A stretch of 64,000 nt of DNA from an uncultured Omnitrophica bacterium (lineage in GTDB: Bacteria > Omnitrophota > Gorgyraeia > JACQQV01). The notes below the pieces were generated by a model. That model was not told the origin of the DNA, ran no database searches, and saw nothing but the letters and a program-made list of their open reading frames with translations. The position numbers were made by a program, and so were the translations under genes. Below are positions 37,111-46,422 of the stretch, in pieces; position 1 is the stretch's first letter, and every line of letters starts with the position of its first letter. The stretch lies in assembly GCA_947085655.1 (NCBI GenBank), contig CAMTXH010000013.1:23513-87512 (forward strand), written 5' to 3'.

Positions 37111-38997
37111 TTGATTTTAATACAATCTTCGATGCAGTTGCAACAAAAAAATGAAATGAGAAATAAGCCCCTCATGGTCTATGACGGCGATTGTGCTTTT
37201 TGCCGCCGCTGGATTCTCCGCTGGAACTCCCTGACAAAAGGGCGGGTCGAGTATGCTCCTTTTCAGGAAGTGGCCCAAGAATTTCCTGAAATACCGCGGG
37301 AAGCGTTCGAGAAGTCGGTTCAGTTGATTCTGCCCGACGGAAACGTCTTTTCAGGGGCAGAAGCAACTTTTCGATGTCTTGCCGAAGGAGGGAAGTGCTG
37401 GCCTTTGCGGTTCTACCGGTATCTTCCGGGCGCGGCGCTCCTTGCGGAATGGGGGTATGCTCTTGTTGCGCGCCACCGCATTTTTTTCTCAAAAGTCAGC
37501 CGGTGGCTTTGGGGAAAGGAACTCGAACCGCCCACTTTTGAAACTACACGGATGGTCTTTCTCCGGGGGTTGGGTGTAGTCTACGGCATCGCCTTTGTTT
37601 CCCTCTGGACGCAGATTGCAGGCCTCGTCGGAACAAACGGCATCCTTCCGATGAAGCCGTATCTGGAGACGGCCCGTCTTTTTCTGGGGGGTGAACGCTT
37701 TTGGTCTTTACCGACCCTTTTTTGGATGAATCAGGAGGACGTCTTTCTTCACCTTGTCTGCGGAGGAGGGACGCTTCTTTCCCTTGTTCTTATCGCCGGG
37801 ATTGCGCCGGTTCCGGTTCTCGTTTTGCTTTGGTTTTCCTACCTTTCCCTCGCGGTCGTCTCCCGAGATTTCCTTCAGTTTCAATGGGATGCTCTTCTTC
37901 TTGAATGCGGGTTTTTGGCTATTTTTCTGGCTCCCTTCGGGTGGTTGCCCCGCTCGTTTCATCGTTCTCCTCCTTCACGAGCGGTCCTCTGGCTATTCGC
38001 CTGGCTCCTTTTCCGGCTCATGTTTTCCTCCGGCATGGTGAAACTTGCAAGCCATGACCCGACCTGGCGGAACCTTACCGCCCTTCAATATCATTATGAA
38101 ACGCAGCCCCTCCCGACCTGGATCGGGTGGGCCGTCCATCAACTCCCGGCCTGGTTTCAAAAGGGATCTGCGGCCGGGATGTTTGCGATTGAACTCGGGG
38201 TCCCCTTTCTGATTTTTATGCCGAGACGGATCCGGTATTTCGGCTGTGCGGTTTTAATCGGCTTTCAGATACTCATCGCGGCAACCGGAAACTACTGCTT
38301 CTTCAATCTCATCACCGTCCTTCTTTGTCTTCTCCTTTTGGAGGATTCCTTCTGGCGGAGGTGGCTACGGCGGGGAACGCCTTTTCTCGAGAAGTCCGAA
38401 TCCTTCCGTTCGCGACACTGGCCCCGATGGATCCTGGTCCCTCTTTTCGCGCTCATCATCCTCGCGACACTGGCCCCGATGGTCGATCTTTTCCATCCGC
38501 GCTTCCGGTGGCCCAACGCGGTGATCGCACTTTATCGGGATTTGATTCCCTTTCGAAGCATCAACTCCTACGGTCTTTTTGCGGTCATGACGACCGACCG
38601 ACCCGAAATTATTGTGGAGGGCTCAAACGACGGGGAAAATTGGGTTCCGTACGCGTTCAAATACAAACCGGGCGATTTAAAAAGGCGTCCCGGTTTTGTC
38701 GCCCCGCATCAGCCGCGGCTCGACTGGCAGATGTGGTTTGCGGCACTCGGGCCTTATCAACAAAGTCCCTGGTTCCTCCATTTCTGCGAGCGTCTCCTTG
38801 AGGGGTCCCCGGAGGTCCTTGCCCTTCTTGAGACGAACCCCTTCCCGGATGCCCCTCCGCGCTATCTCCGTGCTGTCCTTTATGATTACCGCTTCACCCA
38901 CTTTGGTATTTGGCGCGAAAAGGGGCATTGGTGGCAAAGGACCCCCCGCGGTTTTTACCTGCCGCCTATCACCCTTCGTGATTCGGAATTTCCTTAA
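37111..38997 (+). CDS. Fusion of DUF393 (thiol-disulfide oxidoreductase DCC) with a lipase-maturation-factor (LMF) family polytopic membrane domain
   Basis: VYDGDCAFCRRW (DCC motif) at the N-terminus, then about 10 TM segments including a YHYETQPLP-type LMF region. The probable start is ATG 37156 (MRNKPLMVYDG). Confidence 0.7.
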   Translation: MILIQSSMQLQQKNEMRNKPLMVYDGDCAFCRRWILRWNSLTKGRVEYAPFQEVAQEFPEIPREAFEKSVQLILPDGNVFSGAEATFRCLAEGGKCWPLRFYRYLPGAALLAEWGYALVARHRIFFSKVSRWLWGKELEPPTFETTRMVFLRGLGVVYGIAFVSLWTQIAGLVGTNGILPMKPYLETARLFLGGERFWSLPTLFWMNQEDVFLHLVCGGGTLLSLVLIAGIAPVPVLVLLWFSYLSLAVVSRDFLQFQWDALLLECGFLAIFLAPFGWLPRSFHRSPPSRAVLWLFAWLLFRLMFSSGMVKLASHDPTWRNLTALQYHYETQPLPTWIGWAVHQLPAWFQKGSAAGMFAIELGVPFLIFMPRRIRYFGCAVLIGFQILIAATGNYCFFNLITVLLCLLLLEDSFWRRWLRRGTPFLEKSESFRSRHWPRWILVPLFALIILATLAPMVDLFHPRFRWPNAVIALYRDLIPFRSINSYGLFAVMTTDRPEIIVEGSNDGENWVPYAFKYKPGDLKRRPGFVAPHQPRLDWQMWFAALGPYQQSPWFLHFCERLLEGSPEVLALLETNPFPDAPPRYLRAVLYDYRFTHFGIWREKGHWWQRTPRGFYLPPITLRDSEFP

Positions 38998-39068
38998 AAG
39001 GTGGGTTGACGCATTACCCTCTTTTGTAGTAGACTAAAAAAGTCTGGATTCAAGGTCATTGAAAGGGG

Positions 39069-39401
39069 GTGCCTATGCCGAAGTATCTTATTGTCGAAAG
39101 CCGCGATTTGATGGAATACAAAGAGAGCGATTTTGCCCTGAATCTGGCCGGTTCCCTGAAGAAAAAGGGAAATGAGACAACGCTTTATCTTATTGAAAAC
39201 GGCGTCCTTGCCGCCAGAAAAGGATCCGAGGCGGCGGCCAAACTCACCGCTTTATCCAAGGAAGGGGTCAAGGTTCTGGCGGAAGACCTCTCGCTTAAAA
39301 TGCGCGGGGTCAAAGAGCGCACGGAGGGGGTTTCCGAATCGAGCATGGATGCCCTCGCGGATCTCATTTTGAACGGCGCAGATAAAGTCATCTGGTATTA
39401 A
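39069..39401 (+). CDS. DsrE/DsrF-like (YchN fold) sulfur-relay family protein
   Basis: YLIVESRD...LYLIENGVLAARKGS...ADKVIWY pattern typical of DsrE/TusD-like proteins. Confidence 0.65.
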   Translation: MPMPKYLIVESRDLMEYKESDFALNLAGSLKKKGNETTLYLIENGVLAARKGSEAAAKLTALSKEGVKVLAEDLSLKMRGVKERTEGVSESSMDALADLILNGADKVIWY

Positions 39402-39412
39402 ATGAAGACACA

Positions 39413-39459
39413 ACTTACGCCTGCCTGCCGGCAAGGCAGGGAACGTTAGTGACGTAAGT
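39413..39459 (+). other. Nested stem-loop element (outer 7-bp stem ACTTACG/CGTAAGT enclosing CCTGCC-N-GGCAGG) between two dsrE-like genes
   Basis: A perfect 7-bp outer inverted repeat with an inner GC-rich hairpin; no canonical T-run. Confidence 0.35.
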
Positions 39460-39519
39460 CGTTGTCTGAATTTATCCCGAGCGAGGCCGAAGGCCGAGTC
39501 GAGGGATCAGGAGGTTATT

Positions 39520-39945
39520 ATGACTTCAGAAACGAAACCGAAAGTTGTGACCATCGGCATCGCAACCGCCTCTTACCAAAGGGAGGCGCCGACGACGGTT
39601 CTGCGGCTTACCGAAAAACTCCTTCAAAGAGGCGCCCATGTCAATATCTGGACTTTTGAAGAGGCGGTGACCCTCACCAACAAAGACCAGAAGGATCATC
39701 AGGAGCCACCCGGCCTTCATGAGGTGGCCGGCCGCCAGCATACCTATGTCGGTAAATTTGTCGACGGAATCATGAAGGCCGCGCTCCATAGCGGTGCGCT
39801 CAAATGGGTGGTTTGCATCCTCTGTGTGCAGGAGCGGGGCGTGGACGCGCACCAGATGAACGGCGTCATTATCGGAACCTTCGGCGATTTCTGGAAATTC
39901 GCGAACGCCTCCGACCGGCTCATTATGATTCCGACCTATCGGTAA
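39520..39945 (+). CDS. DsrE-like family protein (divergent, Cys-containing)
   Basis: KVVTIGIATASY...AHVNIWTFEEAV and a conserved Cys cluster (WVVCILCVQERG); the fold assignment is inferred. Confidence 0.5.
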   Translation: MTSETKPKVVTIGIATASYQREAPTTVLRLTEKLLQRGAHVNIWTFEEAVTLTNKDQKDHQEPPGLHEVAGRQHTYVGKFVDGIMKAALHSGALKWVVCILCVQERGVDAHQMNGVIIGTFGDFWKFANASDRLIMIPTYR

Positions 39946-39964
39946 GACAAAAAAGGAGAAAGCG

Positions 39965-40354
39965 ATGATCGAAAAAGTGTTAGCAGTTTTCGAAAAACCG
40001 ATTTACTTAAGTTTCGAACCGAACGACCCGCACCTTCTCCATGTCGGATTCGGCTCCGTCTCAAGCGGCGTGAAGGTGAATGTCCTTCTCCGGGGATCTG
40101 CCGTGAACTACGCCGTGAAGGAACAACATCAGACCGATGCGAAACTTCTGGGTCAGCCCCTTGCGGAAGTGGATACCTCGCCGGCCAAGGTGATGGAACT
40201 TATCGCCAAAAACGGCGGGGAACTTTCCGTCGTGAAAGAGGATCTTGCGAAACGCGGGCTTTCACAAGCGGAACTCATCCCTCAAGCAAAGCTCGTCTCA
40301 GAATCGCAGGTTGCAGACCTTGTCGCCGCCAACGACGCCGCCTTTATATGGTAG
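39965..40354 (+). CDS. DsrE/DsrF/DsrH-like family protein
   Basis: KVLAVFEKPIY...VNVLLRGSAV pattern. Confidence 0.5.
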   Translation: MIEKVLAVFEKPIYLSFEPNDPHLLHVGFGSVSSGVKVNVLLRGSAVNYAVKEQHQTDAKLLGQPLAEVDTSPAKVMELIAKNGGELSVVKEDLAKRGLSQAELIPQAKLVSESQVADLVAANDAAFIW

Positions 40355-40608
40355 AGAGCGTGGCGAAGCCGGATAAGACCTTGGATGCGCGGGCTTTTTT
40401 CAACCCGATCGACTGCCGGAGTCTCGATGTGATCCGCGAGGAATTAAAGACGATGGCGGTGGGGAATGTCCTTGAAATCTACGCAAACGCCTTTCAAAAG
40501 CGGGAAATCGAAAGTTGGGCGAAGAAATTCCGGCACCCGATCCTCTCTGTAACCGACAACGAAGGTCTTATCACCATCCATCTTCAGAAGGGCCCGCCTC
40601 TCGGATAG
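40348..40608 (+). CDS. TusA-like sulfur-carrier-fold protein (non-canonical Cys position)
   Basis: LDARAFFNPIDCRSLDVIREELKTMAVGNVLEIYANAFQKREIESWAKKF follows the TusA layout (LDxRGL-CP-P...G-VLEV...D...W), with the CPxP replaced by NPIDC. Confidence 0.45.
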   Translation: MVESVAKPDKTLDARAFFNPIDCRSLDVIREELKTMAVGNVLEIYANAFQKREIESWAKKFRHPILSVTDNEGLITIHLQKGPPLG

Positions 40609-40614
40609 CCCTCC

Positions 40615-41028
40615 ATGAAAAAAATCGCGATCCTCGTCTCCCGCGGAAGTTACAACTCACTCGTCCAGGTCATGACCCTTGTCATGGCCTGTATGGTTTC
40701 AGAGATCAAAGTGCGCCTTTTTTTCCGCGATGAATCGGTCTTTAAACTGACCCCGAAAGAGGCAGGAAAAATTAACCTCACCGAGTTCTACAAAGGGCAG
40801 GAAGCCGCTGTTCTCGAGCGGCTCAAACAAAATAAACTGGAAAACCTCCAGTCTCTCCTTAAAGAAATCAAATCAAAAGGGGACATCCGCGTCGCGGTCT
40901 GCTCCTCTTCACTCGCCATCTGCGGCTTAAAGCACGAAGACCTCATCCCCGAAGTCGATGAGGTCCAAGGCCTCACCTCATTTCTCCTCGAAGAAATTGC
41001 CACCGCGGATCAGGTGCTTACCTTTTAA
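40615..41028 (+). CDS. DsrE-like family protein
   Basis: KKIAILVSRGSYNS...VRLFF...IRVAVCSSSLAICGL pattern. Confidence 0.5.
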   Translation: MKKIAILVSRGSYNSLVQVMTLVMACMVSEIKVRLFFRDESVFKLTPKEAGKINLTEFYKGQEAAVLERLKQNKLENLQSLLKEIKSKGDIRVAVCSSSLAICGLKHEDLIPEVDEVQGLTSFLLEEIATADQVLTF

Positions 41029-41038
41029 ATCTCCTTCT

Positions 41039-44000
41039 TTACTCAGGACCGGGGAATTCGTCCTTAGGCCGACGCGGCTTGGTTCCAAATCGGGCCGGGA
41101 TCCGCTGAGTGACCCATGTTCCGTCATAGTCTCTGACAGTCACACGGATTTCATCTGCATAGGTCTCATCTACAGGTTGGAGGGGTTCGTATCGAAACGT
41201 CCATTTAGCTTGGCTGATTCCGGGTCCATAATAAGGCGCTCCCATCGGGATAATGGTTGCTCCTGACATGGTTCGATAACTGATATAGTTGGTATGATTC
41301 TGATACCGGAAATTATTGTCAAGGTCATTTGCTTTAATGACAAAGGTGTACCCTGTAACCCCTGGCTGAACATAGATTCCCCTGGTACTTCCTCCAAGGT
41401 CAGGGACGTAATTGGCATGATGGACCCATACGTTCCGGCTTAATGTCGATATCCCCCCATCAGGGTGCATCGCCTCAAAGGTAATTGTATAGGGCCCCTG
41501 CGGGCTAGGATTGGGAGGTGGAGGGATTGGAGGATTTGCGGCAGGATCAATCGGCGCCGCTGCAATCCCTGGATCCGGGTTCCAGAGTAAACTAACGGAG
41601 GGGTTGGTGGGATCAAGAGCCACCCAATCCCATATACTGACACCCCCTCTACTCCACAAGGCATCTGGCGTTAAGGGAGCCGTGGTGGTGGAAGCGACTC
41701 GCACCCGAACTGTCTCAGAGACTGCAGGATTCCGAGCGATCGGAAAGGTTGCAGTAATATCTTCTGTAACATCAAAGGGGGAAGGAGTATTGTTGGTAAT
41801 GAGTTTGACATCATTCACATAAATGGAAATGCCGACCATACTCACACTGTGTCCATCTGAAATATTTACCGAGAGATTAAATCTTCTGGGAGCGGCTCCA
41901 TCCGCCACGATACTGTAAGTTGGTTGCCAAGTGAACTCTGCCGTAGCAGGCCGGGCTGTCCCCGAGCCGGTGCTTCTAAACTGGGCTCCAAGGGTGGGAT
42001 GAGGAGTGCCGTCGGAAGGAAGGAGGTCTCCGTCTAAATAAACCCAGAAGGAGAGATTGTCGACACATTCTGGTGCCGATCCACTATTGGGCTCATTTCC
42101 CTCAAACCGAAGGATAAAGCTTTCTCCTTCGTTCCTTGTTGTGGAGCCGGAGACAAACCTCACTCTCGGATAATGGGGCTCACATCCTGCGAGGGCTGTC
42201 CGTGTCGGATTTCCGCGGAACATCGGCCAAGATGCCTCGCCAGAAAGATTTTGAGGCAACTCACCGATCTTTAAAGATCCTTCTTTTCCGATAAAGACGA
42301 ACTCATCTTTTGGATCAGCGTCGATATTCCCCCAGAAATAGCCTTTTGCAGCAGGGAGATGCCCTCCCAAAATCAGGGAAGAAAGATTATCGTTATTGAG
42401 TAGTCGTAAGCCAAACGAGGAAACCTTGATAGGGTCGTAACGGGCATAGGGATGATAGAGTCGTGAAGGTGCAACAAAACCGATGGGGCCGATTGGGGTT
42501 GCAATGGGAGAAAAATCTTCTCCAAAAAACCTCTCCATCTCAATTGTGGGTGGTTGGAAATAGGTATCAAACTTCTCAATAAAACTGCTGTATCGTGTCC
42601 TGCTCCAGTTGTAGCTATCCGGACCGTTTGAGGCAGTTTCATAGCATTTAAGATACCAGCCCCAATGGGGGTACTCGAAATCGCAAGGACTCGCGGGACA
42701 GAAACCGGTGAGCCAATCCCAAAAACCGCAATCTCTCTCGCAACCGGTCCATACCCCTTCGTATGCCATGAGGAGTACCGACATCCTTCCGTCTGAATTT
42801 CTCATGAGGATCGGAGAACCATAATAGACTTCATAAATATAGTTGCTATTCCCATAGGTTACCGAATGTTCAATTTCTCCTGCATTGCCTCGGTGTGTCA
42901 AAATATAAAGGATTGAGGAACCAGCTCGGCTACCGTCGAAGCCTGAGGGGACAGCCACTACCACTTCAAGTGTTCCATCGTTGTCAATGTCCCCAATGAC
43001 CGGTGCGGCATCAACTTTTGCATAGGGATTTGTATATGAAACTAACCAATCATTTGGATTAGGTGGATTATAACTATAAGAAATCCCCGGGAAGGGGCCC
43101 CACCCGGGGAGGGGTTGACTATTCCATTGAAGCGCAAAGAGGCCTTGGTCAGTGGCCGCAACTACTTCCCTCGTCCCATCTCCGTTCAAATCGGCCACGG
43201 CGGGGCTCGAGATGGCTTTAACCGGCTGGGCTGTATGAAAATCTACAGGCCCCCAACCAGAGACAAAGGTTCCATCCGCACGGAAGGCATAGAGTTGATC
43301 GCCGACAGACACGATGACTTCCGGACGCTCTTCGGCATCATAATCGATATCAGAAATGACAGGGGCTCGATAATATTCCCATCCCCAATATTGATGCGGT
43401 ATCCTTTGTGGCCAACCTGGAAGAACGTCGTCTGTCCCAAGGGTGAGTGCATACAATAAAGTGTTTGGCTCGCGGCCCGCTTGCACGACAATTTCTTTTA
43501 CTCCATCTCCATTCAAATCCCCTGCGGCTGGAATTCCAACCGGATCTCCTAAAAATTTCCATTCTTTTAAAAGGACTCCATTCTGTTGCCACGCTTCGAT
43601 ACCGGGAACCGGGCTTTTAATAGAGAGTACAATCTCCTGGTTTCCATCGTTATCCAGATCGACGAGTAAAGGATTGTGCTTATGGAGTTCCCCATGTTGC
43701 GCGACCCATCCCGGCTGCGCCCCGATGAATATTTTTGCGATGTCTACTTTTATCTGGGGTTGACCTTGGACCGTAAGCCTTATTGTAAATTCTCCCCACG
43801 GAGGAAGGCCATCCGCTGGCCATCCCATTGTGCTTCTGCTTAAAATTCCCAATAAAGGTGTTGCCGAGGGAGTTGTAGAATGGACAATGGTCTGCCAGGG
43901 AATCGCTTCATCTTCCCATCCCCGACGGTACTCCAATGTATATCCTTGAAAGTTTCCACCCAAAGCCATGCCAAATATCGGAATTCCCGCCTCAATTTCA

Positions 44001-45532
44001 TCAACCGAAAACAAGCCCTTTTTAAAGGAAGATAAGAACGTTGCCATAATTGGGCTATTGCGCAAATCGCTTGGACCGCTAACAGTCGCAGTAAAAGTAG
44101 AGAAGAATGTCGCCTCATTTCCGGCTACATCGACCGCCTTGACTGTGATTACCCATTCGCCCGAAGGGATGTTAAATTGGTAATAAGGATTCCCAATAAG
44201 CCCTGAGTTTAATATCGTGATGTTATCTTCGCTGGTGAAAGGACTCCCTGCGAAGTCGAATGTCCATCTGTAGTGAAGGATATATTTTTCGACCTCTGTT
44301 TCTGCATCGTCGGCTTGTGGCCACCTGAGAGTGAAAGAGCCGGATGTAACATCTCCAATCGTTTCAAAAGTCCCTAGGCGGAATGTGGGGGGATTTCTAT
44401 CTGTTACAATATGGATTTGCCCAGGATAGATGAGAACATCGTTACTGCTATCTGTGTCACGAGGTTCGATGACTCTTTGAAGGAGGTAGTAAGTCCCCTC
44501 TGGAACATCCTGTGTTTCAATTACCAATTCATGCGTTCTTGTCTCATTTGAACCCACAATTGGGAAAGGAATATTGGTTCTGCCCACAAACTCGTCAGAG
44601 AGATCCCACAGCTCGTCTTCAGAAAGGTAGAATTGCACTTCGGGATTAGCGATGTCAAAAAGGGGACCTTGGTTGTCGACACTGAATCTAAAACGGGATC
44701 GTCTGCCCTGAGGAAGACGTCTGTCATCAGGGGGTAGGCCTTCGATAGTTGGTATGATCCCGAGCGATCTGGAATCACCCTCTGGATCCGCATACTCATA
44801 ATTCGTCATCGAGAAGTCCCACTGGGGGAGATTATTGGGATCATCGGAAGGATACATCATCAACATGGCCTCGGCGTCATCCCCGTAAGTCCGCTCAGGA
44901 TTTCCAGCGTGCAACCCTCTAACGGACATAATGGAAAGGATTGGATCTCCAAAGGTTCCTTGATCGGAATGGCTGAGCCCAAGGGTATGGCCGATTTCAT
45001 GAATTGCGACGTGCCGAAAAGAAGCTACTCCATAGAAATTGGGCCATTCCTCAAATCCCGGGTAAATATTTGATGGATGTGGGTCGTAGAATTCTATGAA
45101 CCAATGTTTCCTCGTATTAAAATAAAGAAAGGCATAATCGATAAATCCATTGTTATCACCATCAATAGAAGGTGAGTACCCCGCGGCATCAGGATTAAAA
45201 CCCCGCTCCTCAAAATCAGCGAAGCCAACGACGATATCCCCGTCACGAGCTTGGTAGTTACAATTTTCGATGGTAAATCCAAACGTGAAGAAGGTGGGGG
45301 GAGGAGCATACCAACGTGATCCCTTGACTGCCCACTGAGGAATCGACTCTGTAAAGGCATTGATAAACTCATTGCGCGTTGGGTTTCCGGAAGGCCAACC
45401 GCAATCCACTATCCGGAAATTAGGTATAACTCCCTCAGGCCAAGGGATGTCCTCCTCGAAGGCCTCTCCTTTGGAGACTCCCAAAAGAAACACCAAGCAT
45501 GCAGTTAAGATGACTCGCTTTGCCATGGTCAC
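41039..45532 (-). CDS. Giant secreted zinc metalloprotease (metzincin, matrixin/M10-like HEIGHTLGLSHS) with FG-GAP beta-propeller repeats and Ig/Fn3-like beta domains
   Basis: Signal peptide MTMAKRVILTACLVFLLGVSKGEA. The motif HExxHxxGxxH+S is followed by a Met-turn (SIM). At least four DxDxDG FG-GAP repeats are present (DLDNDGNQEIV, GDLNGDGVKEIV, ADLNGDGTREVV, GDIDNDGTLEVV). It is 1497 aa, and the gene's GC looks lower than in neighbouring genes. Confidence 0.8.
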   Translation of the reverse strand: MTMAKRVILTACLVFLLGVSKGEAFEEDIPWPEGVIPNFRIVDCGWPSGNPTRNEFINAFTESIPQWAVKGSRWYAPPPTFFTFGFTIENCNYQARDGDIVVGFADFEERGFNPDAAGYSPSIDGDNNGFIDYAFLYFNTRKHWFIEFYDPHPSNIYPGFEEWPNFYGVASFRHVAIHEIGHTLGLSHSDQGTFGDPILSIMSVRGLHAGNPERTYGDDAEAMLMMYPSDDPNNLPQWDFSMTNYEYADPEGDSRSLGIIPTIEGLPPDDRRLPQGRRSRFRFSVDNQGPLFDIANPEVQFYLSEDELWDLSDEFVGRTNIPFPIVGSNETRTHELVIETQDVPEGTYYLLQRVIEPRDTDSSNDVLIYPGQIHIVTDRNPPTFRLGTFETIGDVTSGSFTLRWPQADDAETEVEKYILHYRWTFDFAGSPFTSEDNITILNSGLIGNPYYQFNIPSGEWVITVKAVDVAGNEATFFSTFTATVSGPSDLRNSPIMATFLSSFKKGLFSVDEIEAGIPIFGMALGGNFQGYTLEYRRGWEDEAIPWQTIVHSTTPSATPLLGILSRSTMGWPADGLPPWGEFTIRLTVQGQPQIKVDIAKIFIGAQPGWVAQHGELHKHNPLLVDLDNDGNQEIVLSIKSPVPGIEAWQQNGVLLKEWKFLGDPVGIPAAGDLNGDGVKEIVVQAGREPNTLLYALTLGTDDVLPGWPQRIPHQYWGWEYYRAPVISDIDYDAEERPEVIVSVGDQLYAFRADGTFVSGWGPVDFHTAQPVKAISSPAVADLNGDGTREVVAATDQGLFALQWNSQPLPGWGPFPGISYSYNPPNPNDWLVSYTNPYAKVDAAPVIGDIDNDGTLEVVVAVPSGFDGSRAGSSILYILTHRGNAGEIEHSVTYGNSNYIYEVYYGSPILMRNSDGRMSVLLMAYEGVWTGCERDCGFWDWLTGFCPASPCDFEYPHWGWYLKCYETASNGPDSYNWSRTRYSSFIEKFDTYFQPPTIEMERFFGEDFSPIATPIGPIGFVAPSRLYHPYARYDPIKVSSFGLRLLNNDNLSSLILGGHLPAAKGYFWGNIDADPKDEFVFIGKEGSLKIGELPQNLSGEASWPMFRGNPTRTALAGCEPHYPRVRFVSGSTTRNEGESFILRFEGNEPNSGSAPECVDNLSFWVYLDGDLLPSDGTPHPTLGAQFRSTGSGTARPATAEFTWQPTYSIVADGAAPRRFNLSVNISDGHSVSMVGISIYVNDVKLITNNTPSPFDVTEDITATFPIARNPAVSETVRVRVASTTTAPLTPDALWSRGGVSIWDWVALDPTNPSVSLLWNPDPGIAAAPIDPAANPPIPPPPNPSPQGPYTITFEAMHPDGGISTLSRNVWVHHANYVPDLGGSTRGIYVQPGVTGYTFVIKANDLDNNFRYQNHTNYISYRTMSGATIIPMGAPYYGPGISQAKWTFRYEPLQPVDETYADEIRVTVRDYDGTWVTQRIPARFGTKPRRPKDEFPGPE

Positions 45533-46164
45533 TCCGAAATCTCCCCTTTCCCTCCCCCTTGAGGTAAAAGATTGCGGATAAGACGGTGGAATTGATCACG
45601 GCTCATCAAAAGAACCGGTTTTGAAAGACTCTCCTGGGTCGTATAGAAATTCAGTTCCCCCGTTGAGTCATCGAATTCTCTTGCAACCAGCTCCCCAGAG
45701 GCATTTTCAAGGACAGTCGCTTGAGGTATGGGCAGAACCTGTTCCCTCACTTTAAACGCCCCCTCCCATACGCCCATAATGGTGTTATTAGAGTTCAGAA
45801 AGAGAATTATCTTCTCCCCAACTTCGACTTGAGGGGTTCCTGGGGCACTCATCCTCATCGTGCCAACCGTCCCTCCGGGAAGGCTTATGGTGAAGGGATC
45901 TGTTCTCTCTCCTTTAATCACGGTGAGATTTGTCAACACAACATCTGTCACAATCATACCCGGGAAGCCACCACTACCAGGGATAAGTCTAGGATTCTTC
46001 GACGCCACCGTCCCCTCCACAATCGCATCCGCCTCCCGGCACATCTGGGCGAAGGGGGTATGGATGATGGTGGTGGCGTGGGTGATTGTTTGAGCGGTAA
46101 GGAGGGAAATACCCAATAGAACCGCAACCAGGGAAGGCAATCTAACCGAGAAAAGTTTCTTCAT
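45529..46164 (-). CDS. Secreted hypothetical protein co-transcribed with the metalloprotease
   Basis: Signal peptide MKKLFSVRLPSLVAVLLGISLLTAQT; its stop overlaps the protease start by 4 nt (ATGA). Confidence 0.6.
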   Translation of the reverse strand: MKKLFSVRLPSLVAVLLGISLLTAQTITHATTIIHTPFAQMCREADAIVEGTVASKNPRLIPGSGGFPGMIVTDVVLTNLTVIKGERTDPFTISLPGGTVGTMRMSAPGTPQVEVGEKIILFLNSNNTIMGVWEGAFKVREQVLPIPQATVLENASGELVAREFDDSTGELNFYTTQESLSKPVLLMSRDQFHRLIRNLLPQGGGKGEISE

Positions 46165-46422
46165 CTTGAAGGCACCTCAAATGATTTATAAACCTCTAAA
46201 GAATCGGGCAAATAAAAAACCCAACCCCAGGGAGCCGGGTTAGTTATAACCATTTTAAAGTATACCCCAAGAGGGCAAAAAATCAATATAGAGATTTACT
46301 TATCTTTTACAAATATTTAAAGTTATGGAAACTTCCAATTGTTAAAAAGCACAACTTTAGGGGACCTCCATTGTTTTTTATCTCTTTTTGTGGTATGATC
46401 TTAGGAGGAAAGGAAGTGTTGC

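Follow-up and report, generated by a model that had tools for sequence, protein, structure and literature searches.

A matrixin-like protease of an uncultured Omnitrophica bacterium and its putative inhibitor: an unannotated secreted protein family linked to M10 genes

We analysed a stretch of 64,000 nucleotides (hereafter the window) from an uncultured Omnitrophica bacterium (contig CAMTXH010000013.1 of assembly GCA_947085655.1), and in it a cassette of two adjacent genes on the minus strand, to which the coordinates below refer unless a plus sign is given. The upstream gene (45529-46164, 211 amino acids, ATG start) encodes a small secreted protein, called the partner in what follows, which belongs to an unannotated family and has a predicted OB-fold (named after the binding of oligonucleotides and oligosaccharides) nearest to that of the tissue inhibitors of metalloproteinases (TIMPs) and related NTR proteins. 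The downstream gene (41039-45526) encodes a large secreted protease with a matrixin-like (M10) catalytic domain. We propose, with a probability of roughly 0.6, that the two form a vertically inherited operon in which the partner is the cognate inhibitor, or latency factor, of an M10 protease that has no prodomain of its own.

Both open reading frames (ORFs), which a first-pass annotation made from the letters of the window had described, are real, and both products have Sec-type signal peptides. Read from GTG 45532, the protease ORF covers 41039-45532 and codes for 1497 amino acids, with the stop codon at 41039-41041; read from ATG 45526, it codes for 1495. The ATG is probably the true start, because the public gene call for the contig begins the large gene there, because in all orthologs the protease starts at an ATG located 4-6 nt past the stop codon of the partner gene, and because a GGAG Shine-Dalgarno sequence lies 5 nt upstream of it. 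The 4-nt overlap of the two genes that had been described thus exists with the GTG start only; with the likelier ATG it becomes a spacer of 2 nt, and translation of the two genes could still be coupled. The partner ORF lies directly upstream of the peptidase gene, no terminator intervenes at the junction, and the two genes are presumably co-transcribed. As read from the sequence, the protease signal peptide (45461-45526, residues 1-22, ending in SKGEA|FEE) is MAKRVILTACLVFLLGVSKGEA|FEE and that of the partner (46075-46164, residues 1-30, ending in TITHA|TT) is MKKLFSVRLPSLVAVLLGISLLTAQTITHA|TT, the latter of the signal peptidase I type; neither has a lipobox cysteine. The N-terminus of the partner is predicted with low confidence in the structural model described below, in agreement with a signal peptide, and cleavage at THA|TT leaves a mature protein of 181 residues.

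The catalytic domain of the protease (44837-45460, residues ~23-230) carries the extended zinc motif HExxHxxGxxH in the form HEIGHTLGLSH (44969-45001, residues 176-186), with E177 as the catalytic glutamate, and a Met-turn with M200 in LSIMSV (44921-44935). The N-terminal metzincin domain and Met-turn noted at first reading are therefore present. Further on, the segment D216-D217...Y225-P226 forms helix C, equivalent to the motif LxxDDxxGIQxLYG of the matrix metalloproteinases (MMPs), and aligns with the DD..GIQ..Y motif of MMP-16 and MMP-13. The sequence MMYP, which resembles the Met-turn of an MMP, is really the end of this helix (DDxxAMxxxYP, corresponding to DDxxGIQxLYG in MMPs), the Met-turn being SIMSV. 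Nine homologs share H176, E177, H180, G183, H186, M200, D216, D217 and P226 without exception, and Y225 is conserved.

The Pfam profile Peptidase_M10 (PF00413) detects this domain exactly at its cut-off (24.0 bits against 24.0) and over only 24 residues, and the orthologs score 19-28 bits. By contrast, a profile of four orthologs aligned over 192 columns with five bacterial PF00413 domains, which themselves pass the Pfam profile at 26-53 bits, with an hhalign probability of 99.1% (E value 1.5e-18). The combined profile matched only MMPs in the PDB, the best match being the catalytic domain of MMP-16 with nearly full coverage (E value 9e-12); the ortholog-only profile reached MMPs at an E value of ~1e-3, in the motif region only. 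Matches to pentatricopeptide repeat (PPR) proteins in the PDB sequence search were artefacts of summed repeats. An AlphaFold2 (AF2) model of the catalytic domain, made from a nine-sequence alignment of remote homologs, had a predicted local distance difference test score (pLDDT) of 50.7. The order of its secondary-structure elements fits a metzincin, but Foldseek returned beta-sandwich look-alikes (laccases and cupredoxins), driven by the beta-sandwich domain, and the model was discarded as evidence. As this model failed, the metzincin fold rests on the sequence profiles, and these point to a divergent but complete matrixin.

A prodomain with a cysteine switch defines the zymogens of animal MMPs, not the catalytic family as such. 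We searched the protease for a prodomain and for the switch (PRCGxPD); it contains no PRCG motif, and the catalytic domain follows A22|F23. This A|F/Y junction after the signal peptide is kept in orthologs and in bacterial M10 relatives, and the alignment to the catalytic domain of MMP-16 begins 13 residues past F23. Since the signal peptide runs straight into F23 of the catalytic domain, the protease has neither a prodomain nor a cysteine switch.

The partner had no match in Pfam or NCBIfam (E value ≤ 0.1), in PHROG or among PDB sequences, and a TIMP-like or AprI-like inhibitor had been guessed from its conserved N-terminus and gene context before the fold search. Its AF2 model, based on a 62-sequence alignment, has a pLDDT of 83.6 and a predicted template-modelling score (pTM) of 0.75. 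It consists of a beta-barrel core (strands 47-61, 70-84, 91-96, 118-123 and 136-141) with a short helix before the barrel and a small beta/alpha subdomain after it. When the model was compared with the PDB by Foldseek, TIMP-2 ranked first (2e2d_C, E value 9e-3, probability 1.00) and second (1br9, E value 1e-2), followed by the agrin NtA domain, which has an NTR-type fold, by TIMP-1 at rank 4 and the NTR domain of PCOLCE at rank 5, and again by TIMP-2 at ranks 7 and 10. Because the TIMP/NTR family is a tiny fraction of the PDB, its filling 7 of the 10 top ranks does not appear to be chance, marginal as the scores of this predicted structure are.

The mature N-terminus of the partner is predicted to read TTIIHTPF (46051-46074). 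In a set of 8 representatives, all below 60% identity, 7 keep the junction A30|T31-T32, a degree of conservation equal to that of the core glycines G85, G97, G98, G116 and G135; the pattern A-TTV[IV] is found in 66 of 80 metagenome homologs. Another conserved element is the invariant loop PGGTVG (45862-45879), with G97 and G98 invariant and V100 conserved at 88%. In a gapless comparison of the mature partner N-terminus with TIMP-2, A15-D16 and then the hydrophobic residues 18-19 fall in register, which is a lead only; hhalign sees nothing.

A profile search recovered at least 586 clusters of the partner family, all labelled 'hypothetical protein'. The few named members belong to Chthoniobacterales or Verrucomicrobiota, mostly soil Verrucomicrobiota, and a homolog also occurs in a Nitrospiraceae metagenome-assembled genome (MAG). 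What characterizes this family is its association with M10 genes. Partner homologs precede the orthologous proteases in the loci L003, L004 and L006. Where loci were fetched with the protease alone, a partner homolog lay immediately upstream in three of five, namely L008 and L009 (Verrucomicrobiota) and L011 (the Nitrospiraceae MAG), with E values of 1e-23 to 1e-26. Eighty metagenome loci were fetched with the partner alone, and an M10 catalytic domain was adjacent and on the same strand in every one of the 21 that had both flanks readable. Of the 27 metagenome loci whose upstream sequence sufficed, 24 had the M10 gene upstream of the partner; it lay downstream in 5 of 39. These loci are not all independent, because the 80 partner ORFs collapse to 14 clusters at 60% identity and to 5 clusters at 45% identity. 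Adjacency to M10 also holds in L013-L017, and three long Verrucomicrobial contigs have the order M10 - partner - M10. The order of the genes varies, and the pairing is constant.

Two details of these arrangements may be mentioned. In L009 (7844-11437), L013, L015 and L017, the partner gene is located between two paralogous M10 genes of ~430-500 amino acids. Most of the soil metagenome loci have the M10 gene before the partner gene, which is the reverse of the order seen in the window.

Partner and protease are also found in a single polypeptide. P0078 (966 amino acids) is a natural fusion made of a signal peptide, a partner domain (residues 8-141, E value 3e-15), an M10 domain, Flg_new_2 and four CARDB domains, and its partner domain occupies the position of a prodomain. 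This fusion is Rosetta-stone evidence for partner and protease acting together. The partner had been described as a possible chaperone, inhibitor or anchoring factor; with M10 adjacency in 21 of 21 loci and the fusion, the linkage to M10 domains is nearly obligate, the upstream ORF is a genuine functional partner of the protease, and inhibition is the best supported of the three roles.

The scenario that we propose is the following. One promoter in the AT-rich spacer upstream of the cassette would drive the partner gene and then, 2 nt further on, the gene of the 1495-residue protease. Having no prodomain and no cysteine switch, the enzyme would be active once folded outside the cytoplasm, while its beta-sandwich, FG-GAP and Ig-like domains would presumably bind substrate or a surface. 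The partner, a predicted OB-fold protein produced along with the enzyme, would sit in its active site, either in the periplasm or on the envelope, thereby acting in trans as a prodomain does in cis, and might insert its free N-terminus into the cleft, like TIMPs and AprI. We infer this inhibitory role from sequence, from the predicted fold and by analogy with known systems.

Several observations weigh against this scenario. The Foldseek matches of the partner are weak, with E values of ~0.01, none at or below 0.001, and TM-scores of ~0.3 over 90-100 aligned columns. No signal of TIMP or NTR was detected in the partner sequence: Pfam gave no match, hhalign against TIMP-2 (a sequence identical to 1br9) gave a probability of 0.08%, and the profile search of the partner against PDB sequences was empty. 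The partner lacks all six TIMP cysteines, Cys1 among them; its family has no conserved cysteine, and residue 1 of the mature protein is a Thr. On the protease side, the structure prediction of the catalytic domain is poor, as seen above. A weak partner homolog, L007, has no M10 gene within its 2.9-kb contig. Finally, the TIMP-like partner of a Listeria metzincin is cleaved by this enzyme and, as far as is established, acts on the cell wall rather than as an inhibitor (PMC8235301). That the partner family is the true bacterial counterpart of the metazoan TIMP/NTR module is a tentative idea and a rather doubtful one. If it were true, the MMP-TIMP pair existed as a linked bacterial gene pair, and this pair could have moved between bacteria and animals along with the MMP catalytic domain.

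Other roles of the partner must be weighed against inhibition. It could be a substrate or pro-effector that the metzincin cleaves, and the active fragment so freed would target the envelope or other cells. Tight genetic linkage would fit this role equally well, and in Listeria the metzincin Mtz cleaves a TIMP-like lipoprotein and the pair alters the cell wall (PMC8235301). However, P0078 has the partner domain exactly at the prodomain position, the proteases have no other latency device, the partner has no lipobox, and neither PHROGs nor tblastn against phage genomes revealed any sequence connection of the present family to the Listeria and prophage mtz-tim family. We consequently consider this role unlikely.

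It is also improbable that the partner is a folding chaperone, a secretion adaptor or a surface anchor without effect on catalysis. Admittedly, co-transcription and adjacency in either order would suit any obligate protein partnership, and the absence of a recognisable sorting signal in the giant protein speaks for a helper of this kind. Yet the partner has neither a membrane anchor nor a lipobox, and its best fold matches are protease inhibitors. Moreover, small M10 proteins (430-570 amino acids) with quite different C-terminal domains keep the partner, so that the catalytic domain is the element they share.

Inhibition of a linked protease, the role that we favour, can be compared with known systems, and a linked partner of a bacterial matrixin is already known from two isolated precedents, the potempins and Mtz-Tim. 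The potempins of the oral pathogen Tannerella forsythia are specific inhibitors encoded upstream of the linked KLIKK peptidase and co-transcribed with it, and potempin A (PotA), which has an OB-fold, has the MMP-like karilysin as its target (PMC9890683). The stop and start codons of potempin and peptidase genes overlap or lie ≤5 bp apart, and the inhibitor protects the envelope of the producer (PMC9890683). The pair of the window resembles potempin A-karilysin in that a small secreted OB-fold protein is encoded directly upstream of an M10 protease, inhibition being proposed in our case. The differences are equally clear. Potempins are lipoproteins of 98-132 residues with a lipobox Cys (PMC9890683), whereas the partner has 181 residues when mature and is not lipidated. 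PotA blocks the cleft with loops, in a 'bilobal' manner, and not with its N-terminus, and karilysin has a propeptide and a C-terminal domain for the type IX secretion system (T9SS) (PMC9890683). The present protease has no propeptide, and its partner belongs to a different and widespread family, whereas potempins were reported for T. forsythia. PotA was not among the top 50 Foldseek matches of the partner.

In the second precedent, Mtz-Tim of Listeria monocytogenes, a metzincin is consistently paired with a lipoprotein that is predicted to resemble TIMPs in structure, though not in sequence (PMC8235301). As in the window, the gene of a secreted bacterial metzincin lies beside that of a partner predicted to be TIMP-like. 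Mtz-Tim differs in occurring in Firmicutes and prophages, in its CI/Cro-like switch, in its gene order (metzincin, then Tim), and in that Tim is cleaved and the cell wall sensitised. Its authors found no other record of TIMP-like bacterial proteins (PMC8235301), and Mtz-Tim is the only published bacterial pair of a metzincin and a TIMP-like protein that we found.

Like the TIMP/NTR proteins (MEROPS I35; PF00965, PF01759), the partner is a two-part secreted protein of ~180 residues with an N-terminal OB-fold, which in its case is predicted, and the target that we propose for it, a matrixin-type catalytic domain, is also the target of TIMPs. In both, the residues that open the mature protein are conserved; position 2 is a Thr in the partner and a Thr or Ser in TIMPs, which the sequence of TIMP-2 bears out. 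The partner differs from TIMPs by the absence of the six cysteines and three disulfides, by a Thr rather than a Cys as residue 1, and by the lack of profile similarity. The serralysin inhibitors (AprI/Inh) of Pseudomonas, Serratia and Erwinia, of which PMC8235301 also makes mention, offer another comparison: these small periplasmic beta-barrel proteins are encoded with a prodomain-less secreted M10 metzincin, their N-terminal residues enter the active site and contact the zinc, and the inhibitors protect the periplasm. In contrast to the partner, they are eight-stranded barrels of ~105 residues whose targets are M10B serralysins exported by type I secretion systems (T1SS), and they were not among the Foldseek matches of the partner.

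Bacterial matrixins are numerous, and we know of no established mode of control for the many that lack a prodomain. The past exchange of bacterial matrixins with animals has been investigated, and the 2025 phylogenetic study of bacterial MMPs makes no mention of inhibitors (PMC12587646); reviews describe TIMPs as a metazoan family (PMC9409782, PMC4860685). The main result here is a separate, widespread and unannotated partner family, linked to M10 genes and with a TIMP/NTR-like predicted fold. If its members are inhibitors, they would be a general bacterial answer to matrixin latency and offer a new scaffold on which to build selective MMP inhibitors. Common descent, if that is what the resemblance to TIMPs reflects, would make the family relevant to the origin of TIMPs. 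The partner family, rather than the protease itself, is thus the part worth following up.

We then considered the origin of the cassette. The first-pass annotation had described it as an island of lower GC content, consistent with horizontal acquisition. The baseline for composition was the 53 other ORFs of the window, whose GC content at third codon positions (GC3) is 0.625 (standard deviation 0.053). The large gene has a GC3 of 0.461 (z -3.09); only one ORF has a lower value, and the deficit is uniform across the five 300-codon blocks of the gene. Its synonymous-codon likelihood deviates as well (z -2.42). For the partner gene, the corresponding values are 0.542 (z -1.56) and z -2.46. The two genes therefore do deviate from the other ORFs, but the statement that both are less GC-rich holds for the large gene, the GC3 of the partner gene being no outlier alone. 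Such values, together with a spacer of 34% GC, would suit a horizontally acquired island, possibly eukaryote-like and silenced by nucleoid proteins on its AT-rich flank, and inter-kingdom transfer is part of the history of bacterial MMP genes taken as a class (PMC12587646). However, there are no tRNA genes in the window, no direct repeats at the cassette borders and no integrase or transposase nearby, and every relative found is bacterial.

Further evidence on this point comes from L003, a locus of another organism and the only relative with a readable flank. There, a thiolase gene, an EAL regulator gene, a divergent spacer, the partner gene and the protease gene follow each other in the same arrangement as in the window. 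Between the two organisms, the thiolase and the EAL regulator share 71% identity, and the cassette proteins only 50% (partner) and 33-42% (protease). Because the same locus with 71%-identical flanks is found in L003, the cassette was present in the common ancestor of both organisms, and it evolves fast. The GC3 of the L003 cassette genes is also low, 0.35 and 0.43 against 0.58 and 0.63 in the flanks. As the same deficit persists across such divergence, it is a lasting property of these genes and not the trace of an un-ameliorated import; an imported sequence should have ameliorated by now. Recent acquisition of an island is for these reasons improbable in our estimate, and the claim of horizontal acquisition is not supported. 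An ancient transfer of the cassette into the common ancestor is conceivable.

Beyond its catalytic domain, the protease is a chain of binding modules. A CARDB-like beta-sandwich (44402-44755, residues ~258-375) comes first: an exhaustive search gave 109 matches, nearly all aligned to residues ~260-390, and those sampled were Pfam CARDB repeat proteins, although Pfam run on the protease itself did not call CARDB. M10+CARDB proteins of ~350 amino acids exist, and the succession of catalytic domain and CARDB is a recurrent architecture of bacterial proteases (P0081, P0078), to which the present one conforms. Two further beta-sandwich domains (43682-44395) follow, of which the first is Fn3-like (residues ~378-482; sub-threshold fn3 match, E value 0.012) and the second unassigned (residues ~483-615); their boundaries are approximate, and the region of residues ~378-615 is conserved in orthologs. 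The FG-GAP beta-propeller (42242-43681, residues ~616-1095) has five calcium-type loops, D-x-[DN]-x-D-[GA], at residues 623, 670, 726, 779 and 846, and Pfam run on residues 600-1100 gave FG-GAP_3 (PF13517) at 65.6 bits and FG-GAP (PF01839) at 51.4 bits, both above the cut-off. The beta-sandwich chain and the minimum of four DxDxDG repeats read at first are thus confirmed, with one loop more. The C-terminal region (41042-42241, residues ~1096-1495) has no recognisable sorting signal and no Pfam or PDB sequence match; it is probably made of Ig-like domains, and the ortholog of L006 has Big_9 in this region. Run on separate segments, Pfam assigned nothing to residues 240-400, 480-630 and 1090-1495.

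Two features of this chain are peculiar. The propeller contains a Cys-rich insert, CERDCGFWDWLTGFCPASPCDFEYPHWGWYLKCY, with five cysteines between C929 and C961 (window ~42700-42850); it is missing from the orthologs of L004 and L006 and is lineage-specific. The C-terminal region contains a Pro-rich linker, IAAAPIDPxANPPIPPPPNPSPQG (residues ~1316-1340, window 41500-41580), which is nearly identical at the end of the L006 protein, an unusually strong conservation for orthologs that are otherwise ~36% identical.

The orthologs of L006 (at least 1324 amino acids) and L004 (at least 1076) are ~36-37% identical to the protease over the available length and have the same domain order, and that of L003 (at least 343) is 33% identical. 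A word-index search with the whole 1497-residue protein returned only itself. The orthologs came to light only via the neighbours of the partner, since contig ends truncate their gene products. Four assemblies only yielded the full architecture (M10, CARDB-like, two sandwiches, FG-GAP propeller, Ig-like); among GTDB species representatives the giant protein has distant relatives only, and among JGI metagenome contigs none. The 'eukaryotic-like' character attributed to this architecture was not borne out, as M10, CARDB, FG-GAP and Ig-like domains are standard parts of bacterial surface proteins; FG-GAP propellers with calcium loops, in particular, are common in large ones. As a large secreted multidomain hydrolase, the protease is of an ordinary kind; it is the combination of its domains that is rare. 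That it is mainly an adhesin with a vestigial metzincin domain is highly improbable: ~85% of its length consists of binding modules (CARDB-like, FG-GAP and Ig-like) and the divergence of the catalytic domain leaves it at the very edge of what Pfam recognises as M10, yet the three zinc histidines, E177, the Met-turn and helix C are invariant in orthologs only 33-42% identical, which indicates purifying selection on catalysis.

Upstream of the cassette, the intergenic region between the partner gene and the divergent gene of an EAL regulator (46165-46422, 258 bp) has a GC content of 34.9%, the lowest among all inter-ORF intervals of the window, and its part 46165-46400 has 33.9%. The AT-rich segment said to bound the cassette is therefore real, but it bounds one side only, and it is nothing more unusual than the divergent promoter region that the cassette and the EAL regulator gene have in common. 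The spacer is partly alignable with the equivalent spacer of L003. A sigma-70-like promoter candidate, TTGATT-16-TATACT (46259-46286), matches 9 of 12 consensus positions, and another candidate, at 46285-46312, overlaps with it; L003 keeps the hexamers (TTGAAT...GATACT). In the 5' leader, ~50 nt before the ATG of the partner gene, there is a terminator-like hairpin, AACCCGGCTCCCTGGGGTTGGGTT, followed by a T-run (46208-46241). L003 conserves the ends of its stem (ACCCG/CGGGT), the T-run and the GGTTTATAAAT behind it; attenuation and stabilisation of the 5' end are possible functions of the hairpin. The promoter-like site and the hairpin with its T-run follow each other within ~10 nt (46208-46312 in the window, 1985-2075 in L003), and this combination is kept between two organisms whose partners are only 50% identical. 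Rfam found no family in the leader or anywhere in the window; a c-di-GMP (cyclic di-GMP) riboswitch, considered because of the EAL neighbour, had no Rfam support. The EAL response regulator itself (46423-47526, +) has a c-di-GMP phosphodiesterase domain according to Pfam and is a conserved neighbour; as a speculation, it may link expression of the cassette to c-di-GMP signalling.

The cassette is otherwise surrounded by sulfur-relay genes of the DsrE/DsrH/TusA type, a gene for a lipase maturation factor (LMF1) protein, the EAL regulator gene, an SNF-family transporter gene and a thiolase gene. The SNF-family sodium symporter (47541-49130, +) lies between the EAL regulator and thiolase genes and is absent from the otherwise collinear L003, where these two genes are 36 bp apart, which indicates a lineage-specific insertion or deletion. 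For nine conserved proteins of the window, the protein was the sole member or one of two in its 90%-identity cluster, among ~15 billion proteins; such small clusters indicate a poorly sampled organism. The lowest GC3 of the window, 0.409, belongs to a 109-residue ORF with an ORF6N (KilA-N-like) domain (53748-54077, +), which, judged by composition, is more likely than the protease cassette to be foreign DNA, and the adjacent aminotransferase gene (50829-52028) has a low GC3 as well (0.498). On the other side of the cassette, a run of DsrE, DsrE/DsrH-like and TusA-like genes (37111-41028, +) is convergent with the protease gene, with 10 bp between the stop codons, and is preceded by a gene in which a DCC1-like thiol-disulfide oxidoreductase is fused to an LMF1 domain.

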